Shown: positions 2,587 to 43,949 of the stretch, piece by piece
Numbering within the stretch: the stretch's first letter is position 1
How the letters are laid out: every line of letters starts with the position of its first letter
Origin: an uncultured Acidimicrobiia bacterium
Lineage (GTDB): Bacteria > Actinomycetota > Acidimicrobiia > Spongiisociales > UBA5794
Direction of reading: 5' to 3'
Assembly (NCBI GenBank): GCA_963704825.1
Contig: CAVPHV010000017.1
Span: 102,325-166,324, forward strand
Length of the DNA stretch: 64,000 bases
The notes under the pieces: model-generated
The model's input: only the letters and a program-made list of their open reading frames with translations
Database searches by the model: none
What the model was told of the DNA's origin: nothing
Program-made: the position numbers and the translations under genes

Positions 2587-3648
2587 ATGCGGACACGTAT
2601 GCTCGGGCGTATGACCGACTGGCCATTTGCCTCACCGATCAAACCCATGAAGGCCCGGGTGAAGGAAACTCCGCCGCAGGGCGAAGGTTGGGTGTACGAG
2701 CCCAAGTGGGATGGCTTTCGCGCCATCGCCTGGGGTGGGGCCGAACCAATGCTGGAGAGCCGCAACGGCAAGCCACTGCTGCGCTACTTCCCCGAGCTGC
2801 TTCCGGCGCTCGAGCAACTTCCGGCCGGGACGGTGATTGACGGCGAGGTCGTGGTGGTGGTCGACGACGTCACCCAATTCGACCAGCTCCAACTTCGGAT
2901 CCATCCGGCCGCCTCGCGGATCGAGAGGCTCTCCGGCGAGATCCCCGCCGAGTTGGTGGCCTTCGATCTGCTTGCCGTTGGTGGAGAAGACCTGCGCGCC
3001 ACGCCGTGGGTCGAACGTCGGGAGCGGCTCGAGGAGCTCTTCGCCGGGCTCGAGCTCCCCTGGCATCTCACGCCGGTGACCAGTGACTTCGCTGAGGCCG
3101 AGCGGTGGTTCTCCGAATACGAGGGCGCCGGCTGCGACGGGATCATCTGCAAGCTCGACGACGGCGCCTACGTCGAGGACAAGCGGGTGTGGATCAAGTG
3201 GAAACACCGGCGCGATTGTGACTGCGTGGTCGGCGGCTACCGGGTCCACAAAGACGGTGACAAGATCGGGTCGATTCTGCTCGGTCTCTTCAACGACGAA
3301 GGCAACTTCCACTTCATGGGCCATTGCTCCGGATTCTCCGACCACGACCGGGTCGAGTTGTTGCGCCAATTCGAGCAGATCCGTTCAGACGAGAGCTTTG
3401 GCGGCGATGACGACGTCAGGGTGCCGGGCGCCCAGAGTCGATGGTCGACCGGCAAGGAACTCGACTGGATCCCGGTCACGCCCGGTGTTGTGGTCCAGAT
3501 CAGCTACGACCAGCTCGAGGGTGGCCGGTTCCGTCATGCCACCCGTTTCGAGCGGTGGCGTCCCGACAAGCCGGCCGACGAATGCACCCTGGACCAGTTG
3601 GAACGACCCGAAGGGGCCGGCTTCGCCGAGGTGGTCGATACCTCGTAA
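2587..3648 (+). CDS. ATP-dependent DNA ligase, stand-alone ligase domain (LigC/LigD-ligase-like)
   Basis: Lysine-adenylation motif EPKWDGFR (KxDG) near the N-terminus. Length and motifs fit nucleotidyltransferase plus OB domains. The true start may be an internal Met (MTDWPF...). Confidence 0.8.
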   Translation: MRTRMLGRMTDWPFASPIKPMKARVKETPPQGEGWVYEPKWDGFRAIAWGGAEPMLESRNGKPLLRYFPELLPALEQLPAGTVIDGEVVVVVDDVTQFDQLQLRIHPAASRIERLSGEIPAELVAFDLLAVGGEDLRATPWVERRERLEELFAGLELPWHLTPVTSDFAEAERWFSEYEGAGCDGIICKLDDGAYVEDKRVWIKWKHRRDCDCVVGGYRVHKDGDKIGSILLGLFNDEGNFHFMGHCSGFSDHDRVELLRQFEQIRSDESFGGDDDVRVPGAQSRWSTGKELDWIPVTPGVVVQISYDQLEGGRFRHATRFERWRPDKPADECTLDQLERPEGAGFAEVVDTS

Positions 3649-5036: not shown

Positions 5037-6035
5037 CTACTCGTCTTCCCAGTTCTCGGCCCGCTTTTTCGAGGGCTGCACCCGGGGCGGCTCGCCGGGC
5101 ATCTTGGGGTAGTGCGGTGGCCAGGGGGCATCGCCGATGCCCTGTTCCTCGTCGGCGGCAACCAGGGCCATGGCGGCCTCGAGCGAGCAGGCAGCCTCGT
5201 CGATGCCCTCGGTGAGGTCGCCAACCTCGGCCCAGCGCTCCTTGAACGCCATGATGTCCATCGCCCGGTGGTCGATGGTGGCGAGTTCGTTCCAGCGGAA
5301 TGGGGTCGACACCCATCCGGTGTGCCGGATCGAATAGGCGCTGGCGATGGTTTTGTCCCAGGCGTTCTGGTTGAAGTCGAGGAAAACGCCGTCGCGCTCC
5401 TCCTTCCACCATGCCGTGGTGGCCAGCTCGTGGCGGCGTTCCACCTCGCGGGCGATGGCGAGTCCGGCACGGCGCAGCTCGAAGTAGTCCCAGGATCGTT
5501 CGACTCTTGTGTAGATGTGAATCCCGCGGTTCCCCGATGTCTTGGGCCAGCCGATCAGCCCGAGTTCGTCGAGTACCTCTTTGACGATGGCGGCGACCTC
5601 TCGGGCTGCCTCGAAGTCGTAGTCGTCGGTCGGGTCGAGATCGATCCGCAGCTCGTCGGGATGATCGATGTCGTCGGCGCGGGCGTTCCACGGGTTGAGG
5701 TCGATGCAGTTCATCTGTGCCATCCAGATGACGTCGCCCTCATCCAGGGGAGCGAACATGCGCCCCGGCCGAGCTGAGGGAAACCGGACGTCGACCAGGT
5801 TGCTGGCGCTCTTGGGGCGCTTCACGAACAGGGGTGGCTCAGTAACGCCGCGGTTCCAACGTTTGAGCAGCGACGGCCGGTTATAGACCCCGCGCAGCGC
5901 TCCGGTGGCGCACATCAGGTAGTGCTCGACGACATCGAGCTTGGTCCAGCCCTGTTCGGGGAACATGACCTTGCTCGCGCTCGAGATTCGAATCTCCCGC
6001 CCGGCGGCCTCAACAAAGGTCTCGTCTGAGGCCAC
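5037..6035 (-). CDS. Stand-alone LigD-type polymerase/primase domain protein (NHEJ PolDom, archaeo-eukaryotic primase fold)
   Basis: Motifs KTSGNRGIHIY and DFNQNA are typical of the LigD polymerase domain, as are the length (~330 aa) and acidic residues. Confidence 0.8.
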   Translation of the reverse strand: MASDETFVEAAGREIRISSASKVMFPEQGWTKLDVVEHYLMCATGALRGVYNRPSLLKRWNRGVTEPPLFVKRPKSASNLVDVRFPSARPGRMFAPLDEGDVIWMAQMNCIDLNPWNARADDIDHPDELRIDLDPTDDYDFEAAREVAAIVKEVLDELGLIGWPKTSGNRGIHIYTRVERSWDYFELRRAGLAIAREVERRHELATTAWWKEERDGVFLDFNQNAWDKTIASAYSIRHTGWVSTPFRWNELATIDHRAMDIMAFKERWAEVGDLTEGIDEAACSLEAAMALVAADEEQGIGDAPWPPHYPKMPGEPPRVQPSKKRAENWEDE

Positions 6036-13643: not shown

Positions 13644-13916
13644 ATGGCGAATATGTTTGGGGCGGATCTGTCGGATCTCGCGGCCCTGCGGGGGACGTTT
13701 GAGACAAAGGCGGGCGAGGTCCAGGCGCTGACCGGAGAACTGTCGGCAAAGGTGGACCCGGCCGCAACGGCGTGGCAGGGGCCGGGCGCCGACAACTTCC
13801 GGGCGGCATGGAACGGCGACTTCAAGCCGGCACTCACCAAGCTCGAGACGGCCCTCGAGGAAGCCGCAGTTGCCGTCGGCAAGTACCGCGAGAACATCGA
13901 GGCGGCTACCCGGTAA
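13644..13916 (+). CDS. WXG100 family type VII secretion target (EsxA/EsxB-like), 90 aa
   Basis: Helical hairpin with central WQGPGADNF (WxG) motif. Size ~90 aa. SD GGAAGGAAGGA upstream. Confidence 0.85.
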   Translation: MANMFGADLSDLAALRGTFETKAGEVQALTGELSAKVDPAATAWQGPGADNFRAAWNGDFKPALTKLETALEEAAVAVGKYRENIEAATR

Positions 13917-13946
13917 CCCTGAGTCTCGAGATCGGGAGGGGAAACC

Positions 13947-14309
13947 GTGACCCCGCACCAGCTCCGGCAATTGGCCGACCGCAATCGGGCGGAGGCGGAC
14001 GCACTGACGGCGTCCGCCGCCCGACTGCGGACGACTGCCGAGTCGTTCCGCGATCTGCTGGAGGGGATTCCCGACCAATCCCGCCGGGTCTGGCAGGGAC
14101 CGGCCGCGACCGACTTCGAGGACAAGGCGCAGGCCGCAGACCGTGATCTCCGCCAACAGGCTCAGGTTCTGTTGAGCACCGCGAGCGACTTCGATCGGGA
14201 GGCGGCAGATCTCAGGGCAGCGGCCCGCGGGCTCGAGGTGCGAGCTGCTGCTGAGGAGGCGGCGACCGTTCCGGGTGAATCGGGTCCGCCTCCAACCGGC
14301 GTGTGGTGA
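13947..14309 (+). CDS. WXG100 family protein, 120 aa, second Esx-like gene
   Basis: Central WQGPAATDFE (WxG) motif. Paired with the upstream WXG100 gene and immediately followed by eccC. Confidence 0.8.
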   Translation: MTPHQLRQLADRNRAEADALTASAARLRTTAESFRDLLEGIPDQSRRVWQGPAATDFEDKAQAADRDLRQQAQVLLSTASDFDREAADLRAAARGLEVRAAAEEAATVPGESGPPPTGVW

Positions 14310-17300
14310 GTGATGCAGATCGTTGTGCACCGCGCCGGAGCCGAGTTCGAGGTGGTACTCGCCGTCGGCGACGAATCGGCCTCACTCGGCGAGATCGTGG
14401 CCGGGTGGTTCGAGGATGCCCCGGCGGCATTTGTCATCGACGGTGTGGTGCGATCGGGAGATACTCCCCTCGCAGCAAGTGGTCTGAGATCTGGATCAGT
14501 GCTCATTCCGCTGGCAGCAGCAGGCCCTATCCCCGAACTGACGGAGGGTGGGCTGGGCGCGGTCGGGCGGCCGTCCTCCTCCTCTCGCATTCCCTTCAAC
14601 CGCCCGCCGCGGCCAGAGTATCCGGTGTCGCTGCCGGCCATCGAGGTGCCGGCCGCACCGCCGGTGGCCAAAGCCTCGACCCGTTTTGGCTGGGGAGCGC
14701 TGGTCGTTCCGCTGATACTCGGACTGGTCATGGCGGTGTTCTTTCACCCCCGGATGGCGCTGTTCGCTCTCTTCAGCCCGGCCATGATGCTGGCCAACTG
14801 GATGGAAGACCGCAGGCGCAGCCGGCGCGAGCGCAGGAGCAGCCAAGCCGACCTCGATCGCAGTCTCGCCGGATTCGGGGACCGGCTCGACGACCTCGCC
14901 ACCGCCGCCGCCCGACTCAAACGCCGCGAGGTGCCGCATCCCGATGGGCTGATTGCATCTCTTGTCGCCGGGAGTCTGCGGATGTGGGAGCGTCGGGTCC
15001 ATCACCCCGACGCCATGGTGCTCGGAATTGGCAGCGGCGACGTCGCGTGGAGCCCGGCCCTGATCACCCCACCTGGGGGCGCCGCGGAGGAGGCGCTGGC
15101 ATTGCTGGCGACGCGCCGCGAGTTGCGCGGGGTTCCGGTCGAAGTCGAGTTGCGGCCCGGTGAGGTGACGGGACTGGTCGGCGATCGCCGCCGCGCCCTT
15201 GGCATGGCACGCTCGCTCCTGATTCAGGCTGCGATCCTCCACGGTCCGGCTGATCTCGAGCTCACGGTGGTCACCGACGCTCCGGATGTGTGGGATTGGA
15301 TCAAGTGGCTGCCTCACGCCGACCTCGACCCGGTGGCTGGGCTGCGCCGGCTCGGAGCCGACCGTGAGGACGTCGGCCCGGTCGTTACCGCCCTGTTGGA
15401 GTCGATTGAGCGGGATCCCGGAGGCAGCGGGCCGATGCGATTGCTCGTCGCCGATGTTGTGGATGTTGCCGCCGAAAGGTGGCAGCGGGTGCGAGAGGGG
15501 CTGAGCGCCGCGGCTCGGGGCAAGGCCGCCGCCATCGCGATTGCCCGCTCGATGAGCGAGTTGCCGTCGGTGTGTACTTCGATTGTTGCGGTTGGTGCCG
15601 GCGGGCCAGCACAGCTGCGGGCTCCCGCAGAGAATCGAAACGTCGGCGGGATTGCGCCGTGGGTCGTTGCTGCGGCGACGGCGCGCCGTGCGGCACGGGC
15701 GCTCGCCGGGTTTCGGGATCCCGATGTTGTCGCCGGTGCAGCAGAGCTTCCCCACCAGGTTCGTCTGCCTGATCTTCTTGGAATCTCCGATCCAACGCCG
15801 GACGCCATCCTGCGCCGCTGGCAGGCCGCAGGCGCCGCCCCGCGCCCGGCGGCCCCCATCGGCATGACCGCCGACGGTCCGCTTCTTGTCGACTTTGTGT
15901 CGGATGGACCCCACGCTCTGTTGGCCGGGACCACCGGCGCCGGTAAGTCCGAGCTGCTGCGCACGTTGGTCGCCTCCCTGGCGGCAACGAACGACCCCGA
16001 CCACCTCACCTTCGTGCTGATCGACTACAAGGGAGGGAGCGCCTTCGACGTCTGCGCCGACCTGCCCCACACCGTTGGTCTGGTAACGGATCTCGATGGG
16101 CACCTGGCGTCGCGGGCGCTCACCTGCCTGGAAGCCGAACTGCGCTACCGCGAGCAGCGTTTGCGCGCTGCGGGGGCATCTGATCTTGCCGCGTACTTGG
16201 CGGGTGGCGAGCCGGAGCCGCTGCCCCGGCTGCTGGTTGTCATCGACGAGTTCGCTGCCCTGGCCAAGGAACTGCCGGCGTTCATGGCGTCCCTCGTCGA
16301 CATCGCCCAGCGCGGCCGCAGCCTTGGGGTGCACCTCTTGCTCGCCACCCAACGGCCCGGGGGTGTGATCAGCGACAGCATCCGCGCCAACACCAACCTG
16401 CGGATGGCGCTGCGAGTCCAGGATGGGTCCGACTCGACCGACGTCCTGGGCATCCCGGACGCGGCAACGATTGGTCGGATGCAGCCGGGCCGTGGCCTGG
16501 TGCGGCGCGGACCCGGTGATGTGGTGCCGTTCCAGACGGCGCTGGTCACTACACCAAGGGGCGATGGCGCGGCAACCGCAGCTGCGGTGCGGCCGTTTGT
16601 CTTCGGCTACGAGCAGCCTGCGGCGGCAGGCACCGACCGCACCGAAACCGGTCCGACCGACCTGGGGGCGCTGGTCGACGCGGTGACTGGGGCGACCGCC
16701 ACCCTCGGGCTCGAGCCACCGCGTCGACCGTGGCCGGACCCGCTCGAAACCAACGTGGCCGCCAAGCTTCTCGACGCGACCCCGCCCGATCAGGTGCGCG
16801 GCGCGCGGATCGCGGTGCCGCTCGGGCTCGCCGACGAGCCCACCCACCAGCGGCAGCGGACCGCGTGGTGGTCAAGTGAGGATGGCAATCTGCTCCTGTA
16901 CGGCGTGCCTGGTTCGGGAACGACGACTGCTCTGGCGACCATCGCGCTTGGGGTGGCGGGACGCCACTCGCCGGACGATGTGCACGTGTACGTCATGGAC
17001 TTCGACGACCAGCGCTTGGCCCCATTGGCCGGTCTCCCCCACGTCGGGGCGGTGGTCGGGGCAGGGGAGCGAGAGCGTCAGCTGCGCCTCCTGCGGTTTC
17101 TCCAGGCCGAGGTGGAGGAGCGCCGGGTGGCGGTGGCGGCCGATCCGGCAGTCCTCGGGGAATTGCCCGCCCTGCTGGTGCTGGTGGACAATTACGCCGG
17201 TCTGGCGGCGGCCTTCGACGAGCCGGCCGACATGGCGGTGCGGACCATTCTCCCCCGGGTCGCGGCTGATGGCCCCGGCGTCGCCATCCATGTCGTGGCC

Positions 17301-18221
17301 ACGGCAAAACAGCCCATCGACATACCCGCCCAGCTGGGTTCTCTGGTCCCCGCCAAGCTGGCCTTTCGCCTCACCGATCGCTACGAGTACGGCGGGCTCG
17401 GCATCCCCATCGAAGAGGTGCCAAGGATCCCGGGACGCGCTCACCAATCGGGGACGGGGCAGGAGATCCAGATCGCTCGAGCCCATCCCGGTGGTGTCGC
17501 CGCGGCCGTAGACGCGCATGCCGACCAGGCAGTGGCGCGGCCACCGCATCGCATCGAGGTACTCCCCACCGAAGTCAAGGTGCCCGACATCGTCGATGCG
17601 GCGCGCGTCTTCGACCTCGAGTGGTCCCTGCCGATCGGGATCGGAGATCACGACCTCAGCCCGGTGGGGTTCGTGCTCGGCGAGGGAGATCACGTTGTGG
17701 TCGCCGGGCCGCCACGGTCGGGCAAGTCGACGGCGCTGATGACCATGGCTGCGATCGTGGCGAGCCACCGGCCCGACGTGATCATCACCGCGGTGGCTCT
17801 GCGGCGCTCTCCATTGCGAGACTGCCCGCAGGTGACGCGGCTCGTCACGGATCCTGAGCAGCTCGAGGATGCCCTTGGTTCGGTGCCCAACGGCGATGGG
17901 TCGCCCCATCTCGTGCTGGTCGATGACGCCGGGATGGTCGACGACGAGGGCGGCTGGCTATCCGCAATGGTCGCTTGCCGTCGGCCCGGGGTGCATCTGG
18001 TGGCGGCCGACCAGGCGGACACGCTGCGGGCCGCCTACGGGCATTGGACCAAGGATGTGCGACGTTCCCGTCTCGGACTCGCCCTCAAGCCGAACGCAGG
18101 CTCCGACGGGGATCTATGGCTAACGCCACTGCCGCGTCGAGGTCCGCCTCACTTCCCTCCCGGGCGGGGCTACCTGTTGGCGGATGGCCGCTGTGAGCTG
18201 GTGCAGACGGCATGGCAGTGA
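14310..18221 (+). CDS. eccC: EccC-like type VII secretion FtsK/SpoIIIE family ATPase with three P-loop NTPase domains
   Basis: 1303 aa. N-terminal soluble domain then two TM helices (~aa 125-165). Three Walker A sites: LLAGTTGAGKSE, LLLYGVPGSGTTT (degenerate) and VVVAGPPRSGKST. Start directly abuts the second WXG100 gene. Confidence 0.9.
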   Translation: MMQIVVHRAGAEFEVVLAVGDESASLGEIVAGWFEDAPAAFVIDGVVRSGDTPLAASGLRSGSVLIPLAAAGPIPELTEGGLGAVGRPSSSSRIPFNRPPRPEYPVSLPAIEVPAAPPVAKASTRFGWGALVVPLILGLVMAVFFHPRMALFALFSPAMMLANWMEDRRRSRRERRSSQADLDRSLAGFGDRLDDLATAAARLKRREVPHPDGLIASLVAGSLRMWERRVHHPDAMVLGIGSGDVAWSPALITPPGGAAEEALALLATRRELRGVPVEVELRPGEVTGLVGDRRRALGMARSLLIQAAILHGPADLELTVVTDAPDVWDWIKWLPHADLDPVAGLRRLGADREDVGPVVTALLESIERDPGGSGPMRLLVADVVDVAAERWQRVREGLSAAARGKAAAIAIARSMSELPSVCTSIVAVGAGGPAQLRAPAENRNVGGIAPWVVAAATARRAARALAGFRDPDVVAGAAELPHQVRLPDLLGISDPTPDAILRRWQAAGAAPRPAAPIGMTADGPLLVDFVSDGPHALLAGTTGAGKSELLRTLVASLAATNDPDHLTFVLIDYKGGSAFDVCADLPHTVGLVTDLDGHLASRALTCLEAELRYREQRLRAAGASDLAAYLAGGEPEPLPRLLVVIDEFAALAKELPAFMASLVDIAQRGRSLGVHLLLATQRPGGVISDSIRANTNLRMALRVQDGSDSTDVLGIPDAATIGRMQPGRGLVRRGPGDVVPFQTALVTTPRGDGAATAAAVRPFVFGYEQPAAAGTDRTETGPTDLGALVDAVTGATATLGLEPPRRPWPDPLETNVAAKLLDATPPDQVRGARIAVPLGLADEPTHQRQRTAWWSSEDGNLLLYGVPGSGTTTALATIALGVAGRHSPDDVHVYVMDFDDQRLAPLAGLPHVGAVVGAGERERQLRLLRFLQAEVEERRVAVAADPAVLGELPALLVLVDNYAGLAAAFDEPADMAVRTILPRVAADGPGVAIHVVATAKQPIDIPAQLGSLVPAKLAFRLTDRYEYGGLGIPIEEVPRIPGRAHQSGTGQEIQIARAHPGGVAAAVDAHADQAVARPPHRIEVLPTEVKVPDIVDAARVFDLEWSLPIGIGDHDLSPVGFVLGEGDHVVVAGPPRSGKSTALMTMAAIVASHRPDVIITAVALRRSPLRDCPQVTRLVTDPEQLEDALGSVPNGDGSPHLVLVDDAGMVDDEGGWLSAMVACRRPGVHLVAADQADTLRAAYGHWTKDVRRSRLGLALKPNAGSDGDLWLTPLPRRGPPHFPPGRGYLLADGRCELVQTAWQ

Positions 18222-19753
18222 GCGGCTTTCGCGGGATTGATCCCGACGGGCTCGTTGGGTTGAGCCGGATGATGGAGGGCACTGCGGCTGAGGTGCTCGC
18301 CGCAGGCAACCTGGGCTACGCGGTGCTCGTCCGCCGCGACCGGGAGTCCGCCGGCGACCGCTTCGGGATGGCGATGAGTCGCCTCGCCCGGCAACTCGAC
18401 GACGAGGCGGCGGAAATGAGCTGGCGGGCTGAGGCAATTCGACGGGGTCAGCTGATGACCTCCTCGTCGATGCCCTCGATGGTGGTTGCCGAACTCCTCT
18501 GGGAAGAGGCTGAGTTCGCCGCGGCCGCCAGGTTCACCGTCGGCGACCGTCAGGTGAGCTTCGAACAGTGGCGCCAACGCCCGCCGGTCCGCGCCCTGAG
18601 GAAGATGCGGCCGGACCAGGTGTCGGCGGCCTTGGCGGCCATGTCTCTCGCGGCAGTCGATCGCCTCCTGCTCGAAGAGCCAACCCTGGTGGGGGGGTTG
18701 GACGGAGCCCCCGCTTGGCTGCGGTGTACCGCAAACGACATGCTGATCGGGCGGGAGGTGAATCGGCTCGCCGGACTTGCCGCCGAGATCGCGGATGAGA
18801 TCAACCAGTTGGAGGATCTCGAGTGGTCGGGCCGCACCACGCAGCAGCGTCTGGTGCGCGAGGTGTACCTCGACGAACTCGAGCGGATCGAGGCGCGCAT
18901 CGCCATGTTCGGTCGGTGGTTGGCCGAGGATCGCCAGATCCTGCTGTTCGACCCTCGAGGTGACGGCCGAGTCGCTGAGGTGTTCGGAGACCTCGACCAA
19001 GCTGGTTTTGTCGCCGTGGTGGTGCCGGGGATCACCAACGACATCGACAACTTCGGTCCGATCGACGGTGGGGGGTTTCGAGCCAACGCCGGACAGCTCT
19101 ACGAGGAGGCGGCGAGGCTCGAGCCCGACGTGGCCACAATCGCCTGGCTGGGCTACGACACGCCCGATGGCGCCGATGCGGCGCTAGCCGGTGCCGCTGA
19201 GGACGGTCACCGCCACCTCGTTGCCTTCACCAAGGGTCTTGCCGCAGCGACTCCCGAACCGCACCTCACCGTCATCGGTCACAGCTACGGTTCGCTGGTC
19301 ACCGGGATGGCGGCGGGTGCCGGCATGGCGGTTGACGATGTTGTGTTCGTCGGAAGCCCCGGAACCAGCCTCGACCGGGCAAGCGAGGCGATCATCGACA
19401 GGGGGGGACGGGTGTGGGCGGGCTTGGCGCACAAGGACCCGATCGGGGCGGGCATCGATCCCCTTCCCGACTCGGCATGGGAGTTCATGCTCGGCCCAAT
19501 CGGCTCGTACGTATGGGACAGCTTTGGGACCGGTGACTACGCGACGGAGGACCTGTGGCATGGCCGCAACCCCGTTCACGAGTCGTTCGACGCCATCGAG
19601 TTCACTACCGATGGCGCCGCGGGTCATTCGCAGTACTTCGCCGCCGGCACCGAATCGTTGGCCAACCTGGCGCGCATCATCGCCGGTCTCGACTTCGCCG
19701 TCCGCTTGGTCGGTGGCGGCGAACTAGCAGCCGACTCAGTCGAAGACGATTGA
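18212..19753 (+). CDS. DUF1023-type alpha/beta hydrolase with N-terminal helical domain; candidate T7SS-associated substrate/effector
   Basis: 513 aa. GHSYGS nucleophile elbow and downstream Asp/His-containing segments in the C-terminal half. N-terminal ~250 aa helical. Start overlaps the eccC stop by 10 nt. Confidence 0.7.
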   Translation: MAVSGFRGIDPDGLVGLSRMMEGTAAEVLAAGNLGYAVLVRRDRESAGDRFGMAMSRLARQLDDEAAEMSWRAEAIRRGQLMTSSSMPSMVVAELLWEEAEFAAAARFTVGDRQVSFEQWRQRPPVRALRKMRPDQVSAALAAMSLAAVDRLLLEEPTLVGGLDGAPAWLRCTANDMLIGREVNRLAGLAAEIADEINQLEDLEWSGRTTQQRLVREVYLDELERIEARIAMFGRWLAEDRQILLFDPRGDGRVAEVFGDLDQAGFVAVVVPGITNDIDNFGPIDGGGFRANAGQLYEEAARLEPDVATIAWLGYDTPDGADAALAGAAEDGHRHLVAFTKGLAAATPEPHLTVIGHSYGSLVTGMAAGAGMAVDDVVFVGSPGTSLDRASEAIIDRGGRVWAGLAHKDPIGAGIDPLPDSAWEFMLGPIGSYVWDSFGTGDYATEDLWHGRNPVHESFDAIEFTTDGAAGHSQYFAAGTESLANLARIIAGLDFAVRLVGGGELAADSVEDD

Positions 19754-22757: not shown

Positions 22758-23675
22758 GTGACGTCGACACTGGGTCGCACCGTGTTGGCAATCACCGAGC
22801 AACCGCCCGTTCGCAAGGTCTTCACCGCTACCCGCCCCGGGCGCGCCCTGTCGACTCGCTTCGTTGCGGGTGAGACCATGGATGACGCTGTGGCGGCAGC
22901 CCTGGGGCTGAATCAACTCGGCGCCCAGGTTTCGCTCGATCATCTCGGCGAGCACGTAGCCGACACGACGCAGGCCGAGAGTGCACGTAACGACTACCTG
23001 GCGTGCCTCGATCGCATCGGGGTCGAGGGGATCGACGGCAACATCTCCGTGAAGCTCACCCAACTCGGTCTGGGCAACGACGACGGCCTCGCCGCCGAAT
23101 CGCTGGGAGCGCTGGCGGCCCGCGCCCAGGAGGTCGGCACGTCGGTCAGCGTCGACATGGAGGAGAGCGCCCTCACCGAGGCAACCATCACCATGTTCGA
23201 GCAGGTGCAAGCGGCGCACGGCAACCTGGGCCTTGCCCTCCAGGCGTATCTGCGGCGCACCCCGCGCGATCTCGATCGGGTCATCGCAGCCGGGGGCCAT
23301 GTGCGGCTGTGCAAGGGCGCCTACGCCGAACCGCCCGACCTGGCCTACCAGAGCAAGGCTGAGGTCAACGCCGCCTTCGACCGGCTGACCCGGTTGGTGA
23401 TGGGTAACGGCAGGATCTACCCGGCGATCGCTACCCACGACGACGAACGGATCGCGCTCGCCACCGAGTTGGGCCGGTCACGGAACAAGGGGTGGGAGTT
23501 CCAGATGCTCTACGGGGTCCGCACCAAGCTGCAGGAGGAGCTCCTGGCGGCCGGTCACAAGCTGCGGGTGTATGTGCCCTACGGCTCGGCTTGGTACCCG
23601 TACCTGACCCGCCGCCTCGCCGAACGCCCCGCCAACCTCTGGTTCTTCCTACGAGCCGCCGCCAGCCGGGGCTGA
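22758..23675 (+). CDS. Proline dehydrogenase (monofunctional PutA-like proline oxidase)
   Basis: 305 aa TIM-barrel PRODH signature (VSVKLTQLG...LALQAYLRR...VRLCKGAY...YVPYGSAWYPYLTRRLAERPAN). GTG start 3 nt after the proC stop. Confidence 0.85.
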   Translation: MTSTLGRTVLAITEQPPVRKVFTATRPGRALSTRFVAGETMDDAVAAALGLNQLGAQVSLDHLGEHVADTTQAESARNDYLACLDRIGVEGIDGNISVKLTQLGLGNDDGLAAESLGALAARAQEVGTSVSVDMEESALTEATITMFEQVQAAHGNLGLALQAYLRRTPRDLDRVIAAGGHVRLCKGAYAEPPDLAYQSKAEVNAAFDRLTRLVMGNGRIYPAIATHDDERIALATELGRSRNKGWEFQMLYGVRTKLQEELLAAGHKLRVYVPYGSAWYPYLTRRLAERPANLWFFLRAAASRG

Positions 23676-23685
23676 AGCCCTCCCT

Positions 23686-23739
23686 GTTCCGGCGTGGCCG
23701 AGGTACCAAAAACCGCGCCCTGGCCACGCAAGAACAGAA
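23686..23739 (+). repeat. Copy A of a ~55-nt palindromic 3'-end element
   Basis: CTGTTCCGGCGTGG...CCACGCAAGAACAG arms (11/12 bp stem) enclosing a ~28-nt core. Lies 10 nt after the proline dehydrogenase stop. Confidence 0.6.
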
Positions 23740-23993
23740 AACGCCACGTACGCCCCGGTTGTGTGGAGCGTGATGTCCGAGGCGTTGTCGAACCCTGTGG
23801 TGCCGGACTGTCGGGTCCACACCGGTTCACCATCCGTAGTGAATCTGCGGACATAGCCGTCCAGACGCCGACGTTGGTCTGGCTGGGCAGCGCCCCTTCA
23901 GTCGTCACACGGTCCTAGGACCCTGGACCGGTGGGTCAGCGCAGCCGCAGAATGCGGAGAGGACCTGCGTGGCGATCTCGTGGAGGATCTGAG

Positions 23994-25271
23994 ATGAACA
24001 CCTCAAGGGTGGCGAAGCTTCTTGTCGCGGTTGCCCTGTTGACTGGATGGATGCTGTTGCCGGGCGGGGCCGAGGCAGCCGGCGGGGACTTCGAGGGTCC
24101 CAATTTCCGTATCAGCGGCAGCTCCGACACTGGGCACGAGTGGTTCCCCTCGGTGGCCTACAACTCGACCGATGACGAGTATCTCGTCGTCGGTCAAGAC
24201 GGCAGCGGACACGTCATCGGGCAGCGGATTGCGCCCGATGGCCGCCGCTTGGGTGAGATGTTCGGTATCAGCGGCAACCGGGCTGTCGGCGTGTCCGTCC
24301 CAGCCGTCGTTCACAATCCCGTTGACAGTGAGTATCTGGTCGTGTGGTGGGACGCCCGGCGCGCCAAGGGTGGCGACGGTGACCCGACAGGCGACATTTT
24401 CGCCCAGCGGATCGCCGCCGATGGCAGTCGAATCGGGTGGAATCTGAGAATCAGCGGGAAGGAGATCACATGGCGCTGGGACCCTGATCTGGTCCACAAT
24501 GTCGTCCGCAACGAGTATCTCGTCGTCTGGGAAAGCTCGCGGGATATCGTCGGTCAACGACTCTCGTCAAGTGGCGAGCGGATTGGCAGGAGGATTCCCA
24601 TCAGCGCTGCCGACAGCGTGCAGGCGGCGTATCCATCGGTTGCCCATGACGCAGCCCACAACAGGTACCTGGTGGTCTGGCAAGACGGCAGGAACCTCGA
24701 CGTGTCCGACTGGGATGTCTATGGCCAGCGGATCGCTGCCAAGGGCAGACTCGTGGATGCCAACTTCCGGATCAGCGGTGCAGCCGCGACCGCGTCGGAT
24801 CAGTATCCGGGTGTCGGGTTCAATACCAACCGCAACCAATACCTGGTCTTTTGGCATGACGAGCGGAGAAATCGACAAGTTGGCGCCGATGTCTACGGGC
24901 AGCGACTTTCGGCCAAGACAGAACGCTTGGGCGGCAACTTCCGGCTCACCAACGACATGACGAAGTCCAATGGCTGTTGCCAGTCGCACAACGTTGCCTA
25001 CAACCCAACAAGCGATCAGTACCTGGCGCTGCTGGCGCCCATCGATCAGGCCGGGCACGTCTACGGGCAAAGGATGCGGGCCAACGGAAAGCGCCTTGGT
25101 GCTGCCTTCCGCATCAGCGGCCCAAACGCCGATGTCTTTGGATACGGTTCGAACGCCGTTACCTGCCATCCGCTACGGAACGAGTACGTGGCCGTTTGGG
25201 CCGACGCCAGGAACGTGGACACCCGGGGGATCGACATCTATGGCCGGCGAGTCACCGGGGCGGCCCCGTAG
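23994..25271 (+). CDS. Secreted protein built from ~8 tandem ~45-aa repeats (beta-propeller-like)
   Basis: Signal peptide (MNTSRVAKLLVAVALLTGWMLLPGGAEA). Repeats share the pattern NFRISG...YLVVW.D.R...DIYGQR...G.R.G. SD GGAGG 8 nt upstream of ATG 23994. Confidence 0.65.
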   Translation: MNTSRVAKLLVAVALLTGWMLLPGGAEAAGGDFEGPNFRISGSSDTGHEWFPSVAYNSTDDEYLVVGQDGSGHVIGQRIAPDGRRLGEMFGISGNRAVGVSVPAVVHNPVDSEYLVVWWDARRAKGGDGDPTGDIFAQRIAADGSRIGWNLRISGKEITWRWDPDLVHNVVRNEYLVVWESSRDIVGQRLSSSGERIGRRIPISAADSVQAAYPSVAHDAAHNRYLVVWQDGRNLDVSDWDVYGQRIAAKGRLVDANFRISGAAATASDQYPGVGFNTNRNQYLVFWHDERRNRQVGADVYGQRLSAKTERLGGNFRLTNDMTKSNGCCQSHNVAYNPTSDQYLALLAPIDQAGHVYGQRMRANGKRLGAAFRISGPNADVFGYGSNAVTCHPLRNEYVAVWADARNVDTRGIDIYGRRVTGAAP

Positions 25272-25347
25272 CCAACTCTCTCAAGAGGCGTGTGCCGCTT
25301 TTGCGCAGCACCGGTGACCGCCTCCGGGTCCGGTATCCTGTCGCCGC

Positions 25348-34415: not shown

Positions 34416-35832
34416 ATGTCCACCAGTCAGAGTTCGCACCCAAGAACGCCTCAGCTCCAGAAGGCCGTCAGTCCGCAGGATCGCCGCGCCAAGGGGAAGG
34501 CGATTCGCAAGGCGGTGCCACGTTCCAGCCACGGCGAATGGTCGGCGCCGGCCGACCGCCAAGACCCCGTCGCTGTGATCGCGAGTCAGGATACGGAGCG
34601 AGTGCAGTGGCTGGTCCCTATTCGACACGGTCGGATGTCGGATTCGCCCTTCACGTTCTACCGCGGCGCCGCCAAGATCATGGCGGCCGACCTATCTCAC
34701 ACCCCGAGGACCGGTCTAAACGCTCAGATATGCGGTGATGCTCACCTGGCCAACTTCGGCTCCTACGGTTCGCCCGATCGTCGTCAGGTGTTCGACGTCA
34801 ACGACTTCGACGAAACCCTTCCCGGCCCCTGGGAGTGGGATCTGAAGCGGTTGGCGACCAGCGTCGTGTTGGCAGGACGCGACAATGAATTGGACGACTC
34901 CGCCATCAGGACGGCGACGCTGGGATCGGTTGCGGCGTACCGCCGGGCAATGGCGGAATTCGGGAGCGCGAGGACACTTGACATCTGGTACTCACAGCTC
35001 TCGCTCGAGCAGATGGCGGCGGCGGCGCCCACCAAACACGACCAGAAACTGGTGGAGAAGAGGGCAAGGAAGGCTCGTTCCAAGGACAGCCTGACGGCCT
35101 TGTCGAAGCTCGCGGAGAAAGTGAACGGGACCTATCGGATCAAGAGCCAGCCGCCGTTGCTGTTGCCGATCGCGCGAACTGGCCGGTTCGAGAGATCTGG
35201 ACGAGATCAGGGCTGGGGTTGACGACAGCTTGTCGAGCTACCGGTTGACCCTCCCCGACGATCGTAGGCTCCTGTTCGACCGGTTCACCCTCGTCGATTT
35301 TGCGCTGAAGGTGGTGGGTGTCGGCAGTGTGGGAACTCGCTGCTTGATCGTGCTCTTTCAAGGGCGCGACGACGAAGACCCGCTTTTCTTGCAGATCAAG
35401 GAAGCCAGCAGCTCGGTGTTGGAAGGTCACCTGCCGCGGAGCCACTACGAAGAGCACGGCAAGCGGGTGGTGGAAGGGCAGCGACTCATGCAGGCGTCGA
35501 GCGACATCTTCCTGGGCTGGACGGTCCACCTCGACTCCAACTGGCACTTCTACTGGCGCCAGCTCCGCGATATGAAGGGCTCGGCCGACGTTGCGGCGAT
35601 GGGCCCGGCACGGTTGGCGGACTACGCGAGCTTGTGCGGATGGACGCTGGCTCACGCCCATGCCCGATCGGGGGATCCCATCGCGATAGCGGGATACCTC
35701 GGCTCGGCGGACGTCTTCGATCGTTCCGTTGCCGACTTCGCGTTTGCCTATGCCGATCAGAACGACAAGGACTATCAGGCGTTCGTGTCCGCCATCAAGT
35801 CGGGCAAGATCGAAGCCGTCACCGGCGAGTAG
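34416..35832 (+). pseudogene. DUF2252 family protein split by a +1 frameshift near 35180-35230 (two ORFs 34416-35222 and 35230-35832)
   Basis: Both ORFs together look like N- and C-terminal halves of a single ~470-aa DUF2252 protein. A frame change sits next to a G-run (GGCTGGGGTT). May be an assembly indel rather than true decay. Confidence 0.55.
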
Positions 35833-39823: not shown

Positions 39824-39914
39824 GACCTGGTGATCACGCGCCGGACGTGAGGCGGTCGACGAAGGCGTTTGCGTGGCGGCGGTCCGGCACCGTCGCGACC
39901 CTCGGCCGACTTCC

Positions 39915-39968
39915 CTGTTCTGGCGTGGCTCAGGCGCGATTTCCTGGACCCGAACCACGCAAGAACGG
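39915..39968 (-). repeat. Copy B of the ~55-nt palindromic 3'-end element (core inverted relative to copies A and C)
   Basis: CTGTTCTGGCGTGG...CCACGCAAGAACGG arms. The core GGCGCGATTTCC is the reverse complement of GGAAACCGCGCC in copy C. It overlaps the last codons of the minus-strand GNAT gene. Confidence 0.6.
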
Positions 39969-40421
39969 ATTGGGTCGAGCGAACTCCACAACGTTGATAC
40001 CTGGAGCCACCTCACGTTCGTCGGTGCGATGAAAGCCGAGGGACTCGTAGAGGGCGCATGCCGGCTCGTTGCGAGCGCCGGTCGACACGGTGACGACGGG
40101 ATGATCGAGCACGGCCTCGACCAGGGCACGGCCGATTCCTCGTCTGGCCTGGTCCGGATCGACGATGAGCCGGTCGATGTCGCAGCTGCCGTCTGGTGCG
40201 ACGACAAATCCGATGGCACCGACGATGGCGTCACCCTCGAAAGCCGCCAGCCAATCGATGGGCTGCGACTGGAGTTCGTCGACCGTCTCGTCGAGCGGCG
40301 GAATCCCGTCGTAGCCGATGAGATCCGCCTCGATTTGGTAGGCGGCGTGCTGAATCGCCAGCAGGCGGGTGGCGATGGCGGTGTCGCCGACCTCGGGGGT
40401 TTGGATGGAGATGGTGGCCAT
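39930..40421 (-). CDS. GNAT family N-acetyltransferase
   Basis: Motif RLIVDPDQARRGIGRALVEAVL for acetyl-CoA binding. Start at the internal ATG (MATISIQTPE) at 40421. The extreme C-terminus is encoded by the palindromic repeat. Confidence 0.7.
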   Translation of the reverse strand: MATISIQTPEVGDTAIATRLLAIQHAAYQIEADLIGYDGIPPLDETVDELQSQPIDWLAAFEGDAIVGAIGFVVAPDGSCDIDRLIVDPDQARRGIGRALVEAVLDHPVVTVSTGARNEPACALYESLGFHRTDEREVAPGINVVEFARPNPFLRGSGPGNRA

Positions 40422-40463
40422 CGCCGCCACCCTAGGCGGGGAATTCGCGCTTGACTGGTCGAT

Positions 40464-41633
40464 GTGATTTCGATCAACTCTGCAGAGCGAAGGGCCCGGC
40501 TCGCCGTTCGCCACCGGCTGGCGCGGCCCGCCGATAGCGTCGTTACCGCAGCAGCCGACATGGTTGGTCTGCACTCGAGCGATCCCGCCACGGTCTACCT
40601 GTCGGCGTGGGCCCGGGTGCCCGGGTTCGTTCACGGTGACCTCGAGGCAGCCCTCTACGACGATCGAGCTTTGCTGCGCATGCTCGGGATGCGGCGCACG
40701 ATGTTTGTGGTTCCTCCAGACCTTGCCGCGGTGATGCAGTCCGCCTGCACGGACGCCCTGCTTGCCCCGGAGCGCCGCCGGTTGGTCAAGATGCTGGGGG
40801 AGCAGGGCATCGCCACCGATCCCGAGGCCTGGCTGGTCGACGTCGAGTCCCGAGTCCTGTCGGCACTGGAGGGCCGTGGTGAGGCGACCGCCGTCGAACT
40901 GACCGAGGATGTACCCGAGCTCGGCACCAAGCTGATGTTTGGTGCGGGCAAGAAGTGGGGCGGGACCATAGGCCTATCAACCCGCGTTCTCTTTCTTCTC
41001 GCCACCGCCGGTTCGATCGTGCGCGGCCGGCCCCGGGGCACGTGGCTGTCGAGCCAATACCGCTGGGCGCCGACTACAACCTGGGTGGGGGCGCCGCTTC
41101 CCGAGTTGGACCGAGCCGAGGCGCAGGCCGATCTCCTGAGCCGGTGGCTGTCGGCCTTCGGCCCGGGCACGCTCACCGATCTCAGGTGGTGGACCGGATG
41201 GACGGTGCGCGACACCAAGGCGGCGCTTGCCGCCAACGGTGCGATCGAGGTCGAACTCGAGACCGGGACCGGGTGGGTGCTGCCGGACGATCTGGAGCCG
41301 GTACCGGCAGCGGGGGATTGGGTGGCGTTACTACCTGGGCTGGATCCGACCGTGATGGGCTGGAAGGAACGGGACTGGTACCTGGCCGATCACCAGGCAC
41401 TCTTGTTCGATCGCAACGGCAACGCCGGACCGACCGTCTGGTGCAACGGCCGCATCGTCGGCGGCTGGGCGCAACGCCGCGACGGTGAGATTTCGATTGA
41501 GTTGCTCGAAGACGTTGGCGCTGCCGCTGCCGCCGAGATCGAGGCCGAGGCCGCTCGCCTCCACGAGTGGCTCGGCGACACCCGGGTCACTCCGCGCTTC
41601 CGCTCTCCGCTGGACAAGCGTTTGAACGGCTGA
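40464..41633 (+). CDS. Winged-helix DNA-binding protein of the AlkZ/YcaQ family (putative interstrand-crosslink DNA glycosylase)
   Basis: 389 aa. N-terminal pattern LxRxRLxxxxD...VGLHSSDPATVYLSAWARVPGF and an overall layout resembling YcaQ/AlkZ-like proteins. Confidence 0.55.
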   Translation: MISINSAERRARLAVRHRLARPADSVVTAAADMVGLHSSDPATVYLSAWARVPGFVHGDLEAALYDDRALLRMLGMRRTMFVVPPDLAAVMQSACTDALLAPERRRLVKMLGEQGIATDPEAWLVDVESRVLSALEGRGEATAVELTEDVPELGTKLMFGAGKKWGGTIGLSTRVLFLLATAGSIVRGRPRGTWLSSQYRWAPTTTWVGAPLPELDRAEAQADLLSRWLSAFGPGTLTDLRWWTGWTVRDTKAALAANGAIEVELETGTGWVLPDDLEPVPAAGDWVALLPGLDPTVMGWKERDWYLADHQALLFDRNGNAGPTVWCNGRIVGGWAQRRDGEISIELLEDVGAAAAAEIEAEAARLHEWLGDTRVTPRFRSPLDKRLNG

Positions 41634-41652
41634 ACGCAGTGTCCGCACCGAT

Positions 41653-41703
41653 TCCTGCGTGGCCAGGGTGTCGGAAACCGCGCCTGAACCACGCAAGAAC
41701 GGG
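41653..41703 (+). repeat. Copy C of the ~55-nt palindromic 3'-end element
   Basis: TTCCTGCGTGG...CCACGCAAGAACGGG with core GGAAACCGCGCC. Lies 20 nt after the AlkZ-like gene stop. Confidence 0.6.
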
Positions 41704-41770
41704 TTCTCGCTGCAGAGGTCTGTGAGCTGCCGGGTACACTCGCTGGGAGGCCGACGGGATAGGAGGAGAC

Positions 41771-43949
41771 GTGGCAACGACCGCCACTCAGGAAGCTCCG
41801 GAGGACGCTGCCCCGAAGCAGCGCAAGATCACCGCCAGCGGAGCGCTTTTTGTGCTTTCCGGGCTCGCCGTTGTCGGCACGCTGCTGCTGTGGTGGATGG
41901 GCACGCTCCCCGACGAACCCGAGATCGAAGTCGGCCGGCTCGTCTTCGGCAACATTCCGGGGCCTGTCATCGCCCTGTTCTATGTCTCCGTTGCGGTGTT
42001 CCTCGGCGTCTCGATCTACCTGCTGGCACAGCGGGCCAAGAGCTGGGAACGCGGCTCGTGGGAGAACCGCAGCGGGATGATGAAGAAGCGGCTCCACGAG
42101 TTGCGCGAGGGTCTGTCGATGCGCACCCTGCTACGCGACCGCAACGCCGGGCTGATGCACTCGGCGATCTACTACGGGTTCATCGTGTTGTTCCTCGGAA
42201 CCGTCACGCTCGAGATCGACCACCTGCTGCCCAACAACCTCAAGTTCCTCTACGGCGCCTTCTACCAAGGCTTCTCGTTTGTCCTCGACCTGTTTGCCGT
42301 GATCTTCCTGGTCGGCATCGTCTGGGCGGCGGTGCGTCGCTACGGCATGAAGCCATGGCGGCTGCGCTCGAAGACCAAGCCGGAAGACGCCGGCATCCTC
42401 ATCACCCTCGGGCTCATCGGCGTCACCGGACTGCTGGTCGAGGCCGCCCGTGTCGCCGAGATTGGAAGACCGGACTTCGAGAAATGGTCGTTTGTCGGCT
42501 ACCCGCTGAGCTACCTCGTCCCCGAGAGCTCAGCCGCCGGCATCCATCAGGTGTTCTGGATCACCCACGTCGTGGTGTTCATCGCGTTCCTGGTGATGCT
42601 GCCGACCACCAAGCTGCGACACATGGTGTCGTCGCCGGTCAACATGTTTCTCTCGCCCCATGAGCGGCCGAAGGGCGCGATGCGGGAGGTGCCGAACCTG
42701 ATGGAAGCGACCGACATCGAGACCATCGGCGCCGCCACGGTTGGGGAGTTCACCTGGAAGCAGCTCTTCGACACCGACGCCTGCACCATCTGCGGGCGGT
42801 GCACGTCGGTGTGCCCCGCCAACACCACCGGCAAGTCGCTCGATCCACGCGAGATCGTGCTCAAACTCGGAGAGGTTGCCGACCGCACTGCGGCCGACCC
42901 CGTCTCGCCGCCGGTGTCGGTCGACCAGGCGATCACGGTGACCTCGGACAACGTCTTCGAGCGGATCACCGCCGAGGAGCTGTGGGCGTGCACGACGTGC
43001 CGGGCCTGCGACGAGATCTGCCCGGTCAACATCGAGATCGTCGACAAGATCCTCGACATGCGCCGCTACCTGTCGCTGATGGAGGCCGACTTCCCCAGCG
43101 AGCTCGGCAAGGCCTACGTCTCGATGGAGAACTCATCGAACGTGTACGGCATGGACCAGAGTTCTCGGGGCGACTGGACCGATGAACTCGGCTTCCCGGT
43201 CAAGGTCCTCGGCGAACCCGGTGTCGAAGCCGAGTACCTCTACTGGGTGGGGTGTGCCGGATCGTTCGACGATCGCAACCGCAAGGTCACCATCTCGACC
43301 GCCCGCCTGCTCAACGAGGCAGGAGTCGACTTCGCCATCCTGGGGCCCCGTGAGCTGTGCACCGGCGACCCGGCTCGCCGCACCGGCAACGAATACGTGT
43401 TCCAAGGGCTTGGCGCTGCAGAACATCGAGACGCTCAACGATCTCGGGGTGACCAAGATCATCACCCAGTGCCCCCACTGCTTCAACACGCTCGGCAACG
43501 AGTACCCGCAGTTCGGCGGCGACTACGAGGTGGTGCACCACAGCGAACTGCTGATGCATCTCGTCGATAGCGGCAAGATCACCCCGAAGTCGAACGGTCA
43601 GTCGATCACCTATCACGACCCCTGCTACCTGGGCCGCTACAACGATGTGTTCATGGCGCCGCGCGAAGTGCTCGACACCGTGGGCAGGCGGGTCGAGATG
43701 CCCCGCAACGGCACCGGCTCGTTCTGTTGTGGCGCCGGCGGGGGCCGGATGTGGATGGAGGAGCAGACCGGCAAGAAGGTCAACATCGAGCGCACCGAGG
43801 AGGCGATCGCCACCGGCGCCGATGTCATCGCGGTTGGGTGCCCGTTCTGCTTCGTGATGATCGACGACGGAGTCAAGGAACTCGGCAAGGACGAGGACGT
43901 CGAGGTGAAGGACCTGTCGATGCTGCTCGCCGAACGCTCACTCGACTGA
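41771..43949 (+). CDS. Membrane-bound (Fe-S)-binding reductase with N-terminal multi-TM domain, two 4Fe-4S motifs and C-terminal CCG (HdrD/GlpC-like) domains; frameshifted near 43400
   Basis: [12 protein letters not shown] and [12 protein letters not shown] ferredoxin motifs. CCG-domain cysteines in the downstream frame (ITQCPHCFN..., CYLGRY..., FCCGAGGG..., AVGCPFCF). Resembles the actinobacterial Rv0338c-type iron-sulfur reductase. Reading frames 41771-43570 and 43182-43949 join if one G is removed from GGG at ~43398. Confidence 0.7.

Follow-up and report, generated by a model that had tools for sequence, protein, structure and literature searches.

A previously undescribed family of dispersed palindromes at gene 3' ends in Acidimicrobiia

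What kind of element is a palindrome that recurs at the 3' ends of three genes in the DNA of an uncultured Acidimicrobiia bacterium? The first-pass annotation of the stretch analysed here (64,000 nt of contig CAVPHV010000017.1, called the window below) proposed a REP- or MITE-like repeat family, a terminator lacking a U-tract, or a 3'UTR element that stabilises RNA. The three copies are members of a previously undescribed dispersed extragenic palindrome family of Acidimicrobiia, and this family is very probably of a known kind, the REP/TRIT-like repeats. Work on gene-end hairpin repeats has, to our knowledge, dealt almost entirely with Proteobacteria (REP), with a single report from mycobacteria (TRIT). 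The new family suits two questions: how high-GC Actinobacteria, poor in canonical terminators, mark the 3' ends of their mRNAs, and whether repeats of this type live as parasites, have been domesticated by the host, or combine the two. Several of its traits are useful here: (i) arms that are identical across genera, (ii) cores that are particular to each lineage, (iii) arms that stay intact at old sites, (iv) a position that hugs the stop codon, and (v) a 22-nt phasing of tandem copies.

All three copies lie at the coordinates first noted (Table 1), as a check of the sequence, shuffled controls and a covariance model agree. The motif GCGTGG-N26-CCACGCAAGAAC matches three times in the window and not once in 100 dinucleotide-preserving shuffles. 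The covariance model of the element, built on 66 family members, finds the copies with E-values from 1e-17 to 7e-14 and gives the best other site in the whole window no more than 11.5 bits, so that the copy number is exactly three, with no decayed copies; it also sets the strand of each copy. Every copy folds as a hairpin, interrupted and ~20 bp long (-26 to -37 kcal/mol, z -2.3 to -5.4), which agrees with the palindrome first described. Three details of that description are revised. Copy 3 has the left arm ATTCCTGCGTGG instead of CTGTTCYGGCGTGG; the 12-bp stem with a single mismatch occurs in copy 2 only, copies 1 and 3 having two mismatches; and the core, put at ~28 nt, measures 26 nt.

Table 1. 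Positions of the palindromic elements and of the genes that end at them in the window; bit scores are those of the covariance model.
Feature	Position	Strand	Detail
Copy 1, palindromic element	23682-23739	+	72.4 bits on +, 51.1 on -
Copy 1, arms	23686-23697 and 23724-23735		GTTCCGGCGTGG and CCACGCAAGAAC
Copy 1, core	23698-23723		contains AAAAACCGCGCC on + strand
Copy 2, palindromic element	39913-39970	-	68.1 bits on -, 47.4 on +
Copy 2, arms	39917-39928 and 39955-39966		core on - strand is GGAAATCGCGCC
Copy 3, palindromic element	41647-41704	+	59.0 bits on +, 38.4 on -
Copy 3, left arm	41651-41662		ATTCCTGCGTGG, starts ATTC; one change from consensus
Copy 3, right arm	41689-41700		core of copy 3 contains GGAAACCGCGCC
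Proline dehydrogenase gene (Pro_dh)	22758-23675	+	TGA 23673-23675, 10 nt before GTTC of copy 1
GNAT acetyltransferase gene	39930-40634	-	3' end enters copy 2
AlkZ-like DNA glycosylase gene	40464-41633	+	stop 17 nt before copy 3

The neighbouring genes had been named correctly, Pfam confirming the proline dehydrogenase (ProDH), the GNAT acetyltransferase and the AlkZ-like glycosylase, and their stop codons stand where they had been placed: shortly upstream of copies 1 and 3, and within copy 2 for the GNAT gene. Copy 2 holds the last 12 codons and the TGA (39930-39932) of this gene, whose Pfam domain stops at residue 217 of 234. The gene that follows the AlkZ-like gene and copy 3 starts at 41771. 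Copies 2 and 3 (39913-41704) are inverted and flank the divergent GNAT and AlkZ-like pair, each in the sense orientation of its own gene; this bracket is not a recently moved composite, as its left half is conserved in the MFD03804 lineage.

The further copies that the annotation had led one to seek are present in number in related genomes. A scan for GTTC-NN-GCGTGG-N20-40-CCACGC-NN-GAAC, with one genome per species, returned at least 92 loci, mostly from at least five Acidimicrobiia metagenome-assembled genomes (MAGs) with several copies per contig; among the matches listed, some are chance matches within coding regions. The viral contigs scanned gave one chance match, inside a coding region. 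About 90 copies from 0.53 Mb of fetched Acidimicrobiia loci were aligned, and each of them is either intergenic or covers the last codons of a gene. The density in DNA not chosen by the pattern (the window, L093 and L094) is 5 sites per ~99 kb. The covariance model flags gene 3' ends and can aid the annotation of Acidimicrobiia MAGs.

Each unit is a two-part hairpin: a conserved 'clamp' at the base, topped by 26 nt of stem and loop that evolve fast. The element is ~56 nt long and reads ccY-GTTC-NN-GCGTGG-(26-nt variable hairpin top)-CCACGC-NN-GAAC-Rgg, with 50 nt from GTTC to GAAC and a palindrome that runs ~3 nt past each end (ccY...Rgg). The 20 arm positions are almost invariant, in part through ascertainment, since many loci were retrieved by exact arm matches, and the inner 26 nt are only ~70% identical among copies. 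In copies not picked by pattern, divergence from the consensus affects 9 of 240 arm positions and ~30% of the interior, so that the arms are ~8-fold better conserved. Some copies have decayed (L038 878). The NN dinucleotide of either arm is restricted to TT, TG, GT, CG and CT, with the same distribution in both arms and no co-variation between them; because the two vary independently, one or two mismatches are usual in the stem at these positions.

The fold is equally symmetrical. The mean minimum free energy is -33.7 kcal/mol per 58 nt, with no difference between the strands: neither the strand with the GAAA loop nor the mRNA-sense strand is favoured, and counts of G-U versus A-C likewise give no strand preference. 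Covariation beyond column composition is absent (82.5% of cells are paired, versus 81.7% in shuffles); the pairing belongs to the column consensus, not to compensation within single sequences. The 3' flank of the hairpin has the Rgg consensus and no T-run.

The arms are identical across lineages, whereas the inner consensus differs from one lineage to the next. It is GGTACC-AGAAAC-CGCGCC in the window, MFD03804 and co373_9; copies of MFD09779 have a perfect stem with a GAAA cap, and those of Bin.002_Pasture a perfect 23-bp stem. Some copies have a 'corrected' apical stem (GGTACC...GGTACC or GGCGCG...CGCGCC), as would be expected of template switching within a quasi-palindrome. Lineage-specific cores on identical arms suggest that each lineage amplified the family from master copies of its own.

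The age of single copies can be judged from orthologous sites. Measured against the ProDH of the window, that of MFD03804.bin.2.108 has 94% identity and that of a third lineage ~90%, and the element stands behind the gene in all three, as a tandem pair in the third. Copy 1 has orthologues at L093 10929-10980 and in L042/L094, and copy 2 at L087 7091-7140 (MFD03804). The element is retained at all of the ~11 orthologous sites that can be compared between these lineages, yet its inner 26 nt are no more than 76% identical between orthologues, hardly above the 66-71% of random copy pairs. In relatives with 66-71% ProDH identity, the element is absent behind ProDH and from 63 kb of syntenic DNA, which speaks for its gain; no convincing site is shared with the distant MFD09779/CAWBYA lineage. 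The simplest history would consist of separate amplifications in each lineage from its own master copies, the arms being required every time, and then long persistence; the arms but not the interior would have stayed constrained at each site. In one distant relative at 66% ProDH identity (L196 10930-10990), CCTGTTCTCTCGCTGGTAGG stands twice in direct orientation after the ProDH stop, and the start of this repeat resembles the left arm of the element (CCTGTTCT...).

Copies in tandem are set at a fixed distance. In a scan of metagenomes, in which the left arm of one copy could follow the right arm of the preceding one after any 10-40 nt, 19 of 21 true tandems had a gap of exactly 22 nt, and the genome set gave the same value in 8 of 9 (tandems stand, for example, at L008 1816-1937, L014 2558-2679, L042 3994-4115, L082 1391-1584, L122, L131 and L139). 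The period is 72 nt in nearly all cases, L139 having 66 nt. The copies are direct, except for one inverted pair, L022 53/125, with the 22-nt spacing. The spacers vary by locus around a weak common pattern, AGAT..GG.C.....CC.TCCY. Arrays have at most four units, and some contain plain duplications of a unit (72 nt in L131 and L045, 66 nt in L139), the outcome to be expected of unequal crossing-over. The fixed gap of the first doublet would mean either that the real unit is ~72 nt long with weakly conserved flanks, or that a hairpin already in place directs the next copy to a set distance from itself. One tandem array (L085 2607-2760) contains a run of N, an assembly gap, so that repeats of the element can break or collapse short-read assemblies. 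At L161 700-900 (metagenome contig Ga0190272_10000023) there is a tandem array of a 21-nt unit, GTTCACGCGTGGACATCCGGA, that includes GTTC-NN-GCGTGG; a protein of the same specificity might bind this array in the manner of iterons, or the likeness is a coincidence.

The position of the family relative to genes was read from the rough gene calls of a purpose-made codon-usage caller. Measured from the nearest stop codon that points towards the element, distances cluster at 2-20 nt, a few ORFs end within the element, and the upstream stop is much nearer to the element than the downstream start. Twenty-three sites lie between convergent genes, often 3-11 nt from either, and ~30 have one gene ending at the element; 'divergent' contexts are few, and at least one (L087) is a miscall. 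The first-pass annotation had the element in the orientation of its gene, which is true of all three window copies and, at the one-gene sites of the family, becomes a tendency (core sense at 20, antisense at 9, p = 0.06). Both a U-tract-less terminator and a 3'UTR stability element are compatible with this position and with the fold.

Among known repeats, the 'Tuberculosis Rho-independent terminator' motif (TRIT), reported to be restricted to Mycobacterium (Gardner et al. 2011, PMC3152330), is close to the Acidimicrobiia family. Both consist of sequence-conserved palindromic hairpins without a U-tract in Actinobacteria, in 100-200 copies that are mostly bidirectional, and both have a very narrow distribution of distances around the stop codon, which they often overlap (PMC3152330). 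The terminator role of TRIT is doubtful, and direct termination at hairpins without a U-tract has been argued against in mycobacteria (PMC3993855; 10.1101/2022.06.01.494293); the authors of one of these studies suggest that structures in the 3'-UTR may stabilise RNA, as REPs do (PMC3993855). As far as the two families can be compared by description, an invariant clamp under a variable top and tandems phased at 22 nt belong to the Acidimicrobiia family and are not described for TRIT. Rfam holds no TRIT model.

REPs stabilise upstream mRNA, and work by Liang, Rudd and Deutscher in 2015 reportedly found that those within ~15 nt of the stop codon affect translation. The Acidimicrobiia family shares with REPs and REPINs the nature of a short, imperfect extragenic palindrome in many copies with long vertical inheritance at orthologous sites, as well as the absence of target duplication, the sequence types of each lineage, the location at gene 3' ends and the higher-order clusters (PMC3116915, PMC5581495). 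The proposal of a REP-like repeat family is supported by the many copies in relatives, their retention at orthologous sites and the lineage-specific consensus cores. The likeness has limits: the 66 aligned copies lack the GTAG/GTGG-type head of REPs (their ends are ccY-GTTC and GAAC-Rgg), and the mobile REPIN is an inverted doublet, whereas the Acidimicrobiia unit is a single hairpin found in direct tandems at the fixed 22-nt gap. Inverted pairs of DNA uptake sequences in Neisseria and Haemophilus double as terminators, in the account of Kingsford et al. 2007 given in PMC3993855. They resemble the Acidimicrobiia family in having conserved inverted arms of 10-12 nt around a variable spacer downstream of genes; single uptake sequences, however, are very frequent, also within genes, whereas solo arms of the Acidimicrobiia element are not enriched.

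No target-site duplications were found, direct border repeats of 2-5 nt being at chance level, and there was no enrichment of solo arms, no IS-like end and no pair of arms 0.5-3 kb apart. Pfam profiles run on the ~47 ORFs of the window detected no transposase, integrase or cas gene, and no Y1 HUH transposase (PF01797). In ~0.8 Mb of fetched loci, ~4% of each genome, tblastn with E. coli RayT gave no RAYT but one weak spurious match, the cytochrome b subunit of succinate dehydrogenase. The genes between close copies are ordinary small ones (GNAT, SnoaL, MazF-like, DUF559-like), and clustering of the flanking proteins gave orthologous pairs only, with no protein family recurring beside the elements. 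The suggestion of a MITE-like element is not supported, for want of target-site duplications, solo arms, IS ends or a transposase in the window and fetched loci; a MITE derived from a DDE transposon was rejected on the chance-level border repeats and the lack of any IS sharing the arms.

An Rfam match had been sought for the element; the whole window has none at gathering thresholds, and relaxing the limit to E = 10 adds nothing but chance miRNA-like matches of at most 17 bits. The literature searched yielded no link of such repeats, or of REP/RAYT systems, to Acidimicrobiia. Canonical hairpins with a T-tract number 12 in the window between 22.5 and 42.4 kb, versus 10.5 expected by chance, and the scan for such terminators does not pick up the elements. 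A canonical intrinsic terminator was rejected: the hairpin is there, but the Rgg flank takes the place of the 7-9-nt U-tract that should follow it.

On balance, the reading to be preferred is that of a repeat which spread by copying without target duplication and now acts as a two-way hairpin at mRNA 3' ends, its lower stem being read by a putative protein. The role is proposed from position and conservation. Spread would have been of the copy-and-paste type that leaves no target duplication, with a single-strand, hairpin-recognising enzyme (HUH/RAYT-like) as the candidate copier, and the host would now keep the established copies. Transcription from either side would produce a 20-23-bp hairpin at the stop codon or a few bases past it, whose most likely task is to define the 3' end of the mRNA or to shield it, by blocking exonucleases or by serving as a processing site; one hairpin could serve both of two convergent genes and could uncouple adjacent cistrons. 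The hairpin alone is probably without the power to stop RNA polymerase, and a hairpin that starts inside the footprint of the terminating ribosome would be a poor co-transcriptional terminator. The lower stem, conserved in sequence, is most likely the binding site of a putative protein. A role at the level of DNA fits the data equally well, since neither the folding nor the G-U versus A-C counts are asymmetrical between strands.

A more specific version, distinctly unlikely, makes the invariant lower stem (GUUC-NN-GCGUGG / CCACGC-NN-GAAC) the site of a dedicated putative protein. Formation or processing of mRNA 3' ends would then be sequence-specific, two-way and coupled to translation termination, and either this protein or an enzyme guided by the hairpin would insert further copies in the fixed 22-nt register. 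If true, this would amount to factor-dependent punctuation of transcripts in a lineage without canonical terminators, and would provide a testable model for the unexplained TRITs of mycobacteria.

The reading that ranks next after the preferred one is rather unlikely in our judgement: a purely selfish REPIN-like element, copied as single-stranded DNA by a single-copy RAYT encoded elsewhere, with a 3'-end bias that reflects loss from other places and with no function for the host. It would account for the lineage-specific cores on conserved arms, the absent target duplication, the mismatches within the stem (a trait of the hairpins that HUH enzymes bind) and the empty site in more distant relatives, and long vertical persistence is a property of REPIN-RAYT systems as well (10.1101/2021.07.10.451892; PMC5581495). 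It is opposed by the lack of a Y1 transposase in the window, by a RayT search of ~4% of each genome that met only the succinate dehydrogenase subunit, by the missing GTAG-type head and by tandem copies that are direct rather than inverted doublets. The arms, moreover, are intact even in copies not needed for further spread. RAYT groups come mainly from Proteobacteria, Clostridia, Cyanobacteria and others, and the main text of the survey that describes them is without Actinobacteria. A U-tract-less ('I-shaped') intrinsic terminator, in which the RNA hairpin alone releases the transcript in both directions, suits a stable GC-rich hairpin right after genes, enriched between convergent ones, in a window with few canonical terminators. 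It is nonetheless improbable, because the 3' flank is Rgg and not T-rich, mycobacterial RNA polymerase requires the U-tract in vitro (PMC3993855), and predicted TRIT or I-shaped sites overlap just 2-4% of M. tuberculosis 3' ends (10.1101/2022.06.01.494293). Many copies also stand so close to the following co-directional gene (18-90 nt) that a promoter would hardly fit in between, and a plain terminator has no need of a conserved stem sequence.

Gyrase and IHF bind the BIMEs of E. coli, and the Acidimicrobiia element might likewise act as double-stranded DNA, with two inverted 12-bp half-sites (GTTC-BK-GCGTGG) for a nucleoid-associated, topological or other protein, or as a cruciform. The restricted NN set common to both arms without co-variation, the full symmetry of the strands and a tandem phasing of 72 bp, about seven helical turns, are in its favour. 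Half-site centres 38 bp apart would be unusual for a dimer, however, solo arms are not enriched, and there is no obvious reason at the DNA level for the tight link to stop codons, so that this account carries a low probability. Scarcely credible, and largely refuted, is the group formed by an attC-like cassette site, a miniature transposon derived from a DDE-type IS, and a mini-CRISPR array. attC is recognised as a folded single strand. Like the element, it is a hairpin that is defined by structure and lies where an ORF ends, and it combines a conserved outer stem (7 bp here), an unpaired spacer (2 nt here), an inner stem and a variable terminus; the locus-specific 22-nt spacers of tandem copies are a further point for the group. 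But the ends of the element read YGTTC...GAACR and not RYYYAAC...GTTRRRY, cassette arrays are absent, the window has no integrase, transposase or cas gene, and copies stand behind conserved housekeeping genes at orthologous sites. An integron attC was rejected on the same grounds: ends of the form ccYGTTC...GAACRgg, an integrase-free window and copies dispersed behind conserved genes. Also against the group stand the absent target duplication, the lack of an IS with such ends, and arrays of at most four units, some of them plain duplications with identical spacers.

Several features near the copies were noted in passing. Beside copy 2, ~1.19 kb of MFD03804 (L087 5820-7055) is missing from the window (39833-39912); it is the body of a gene for a ~400-aa membrane protein, whose two ends remain and adjoin the copy. 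The idea that the element borders variable gene segments was rejected, this difference being a simple internal deletion of the neighbouring gene. In a single case, a real difference, synteny is lost immediately 3' of the element, at copy 1 (window 23745-25326 versus L093 10990-14685 and L094 4268-5450): the 1.6 kb found there in the window carry an ORF that belongs to no known family (23931-25271), whereas MFD03804 has sigma-70, LTD, YCII and GNAT genes and the third lineage a second element copy plus YCII and GNAT.

Other loci of the window deserve mention. Two distinct genes (2587-3648 and 5037-6035) code for an ATP-dependent DNA ligase and a LigD-type primase-polymerase, which resembles a split NHEJ ligase D; no Ku gene is found among the scanned window ORFs. 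A DUF2252 gene is divided between two plus-strand ORFs in different frames (34416-35222 and 35230-35832, covering Pfam profile positions 1-191 and 202-392), and is a frameshifted pseudogene or the product of an assembly indel error. An ESX/type VII-like secretion cluster (13644-19753), with WXG100, an EccC-like FtsK/SpoIIIE ATPase of 1303 aa and Abhydrolase_8, is conserved in every relative examined.
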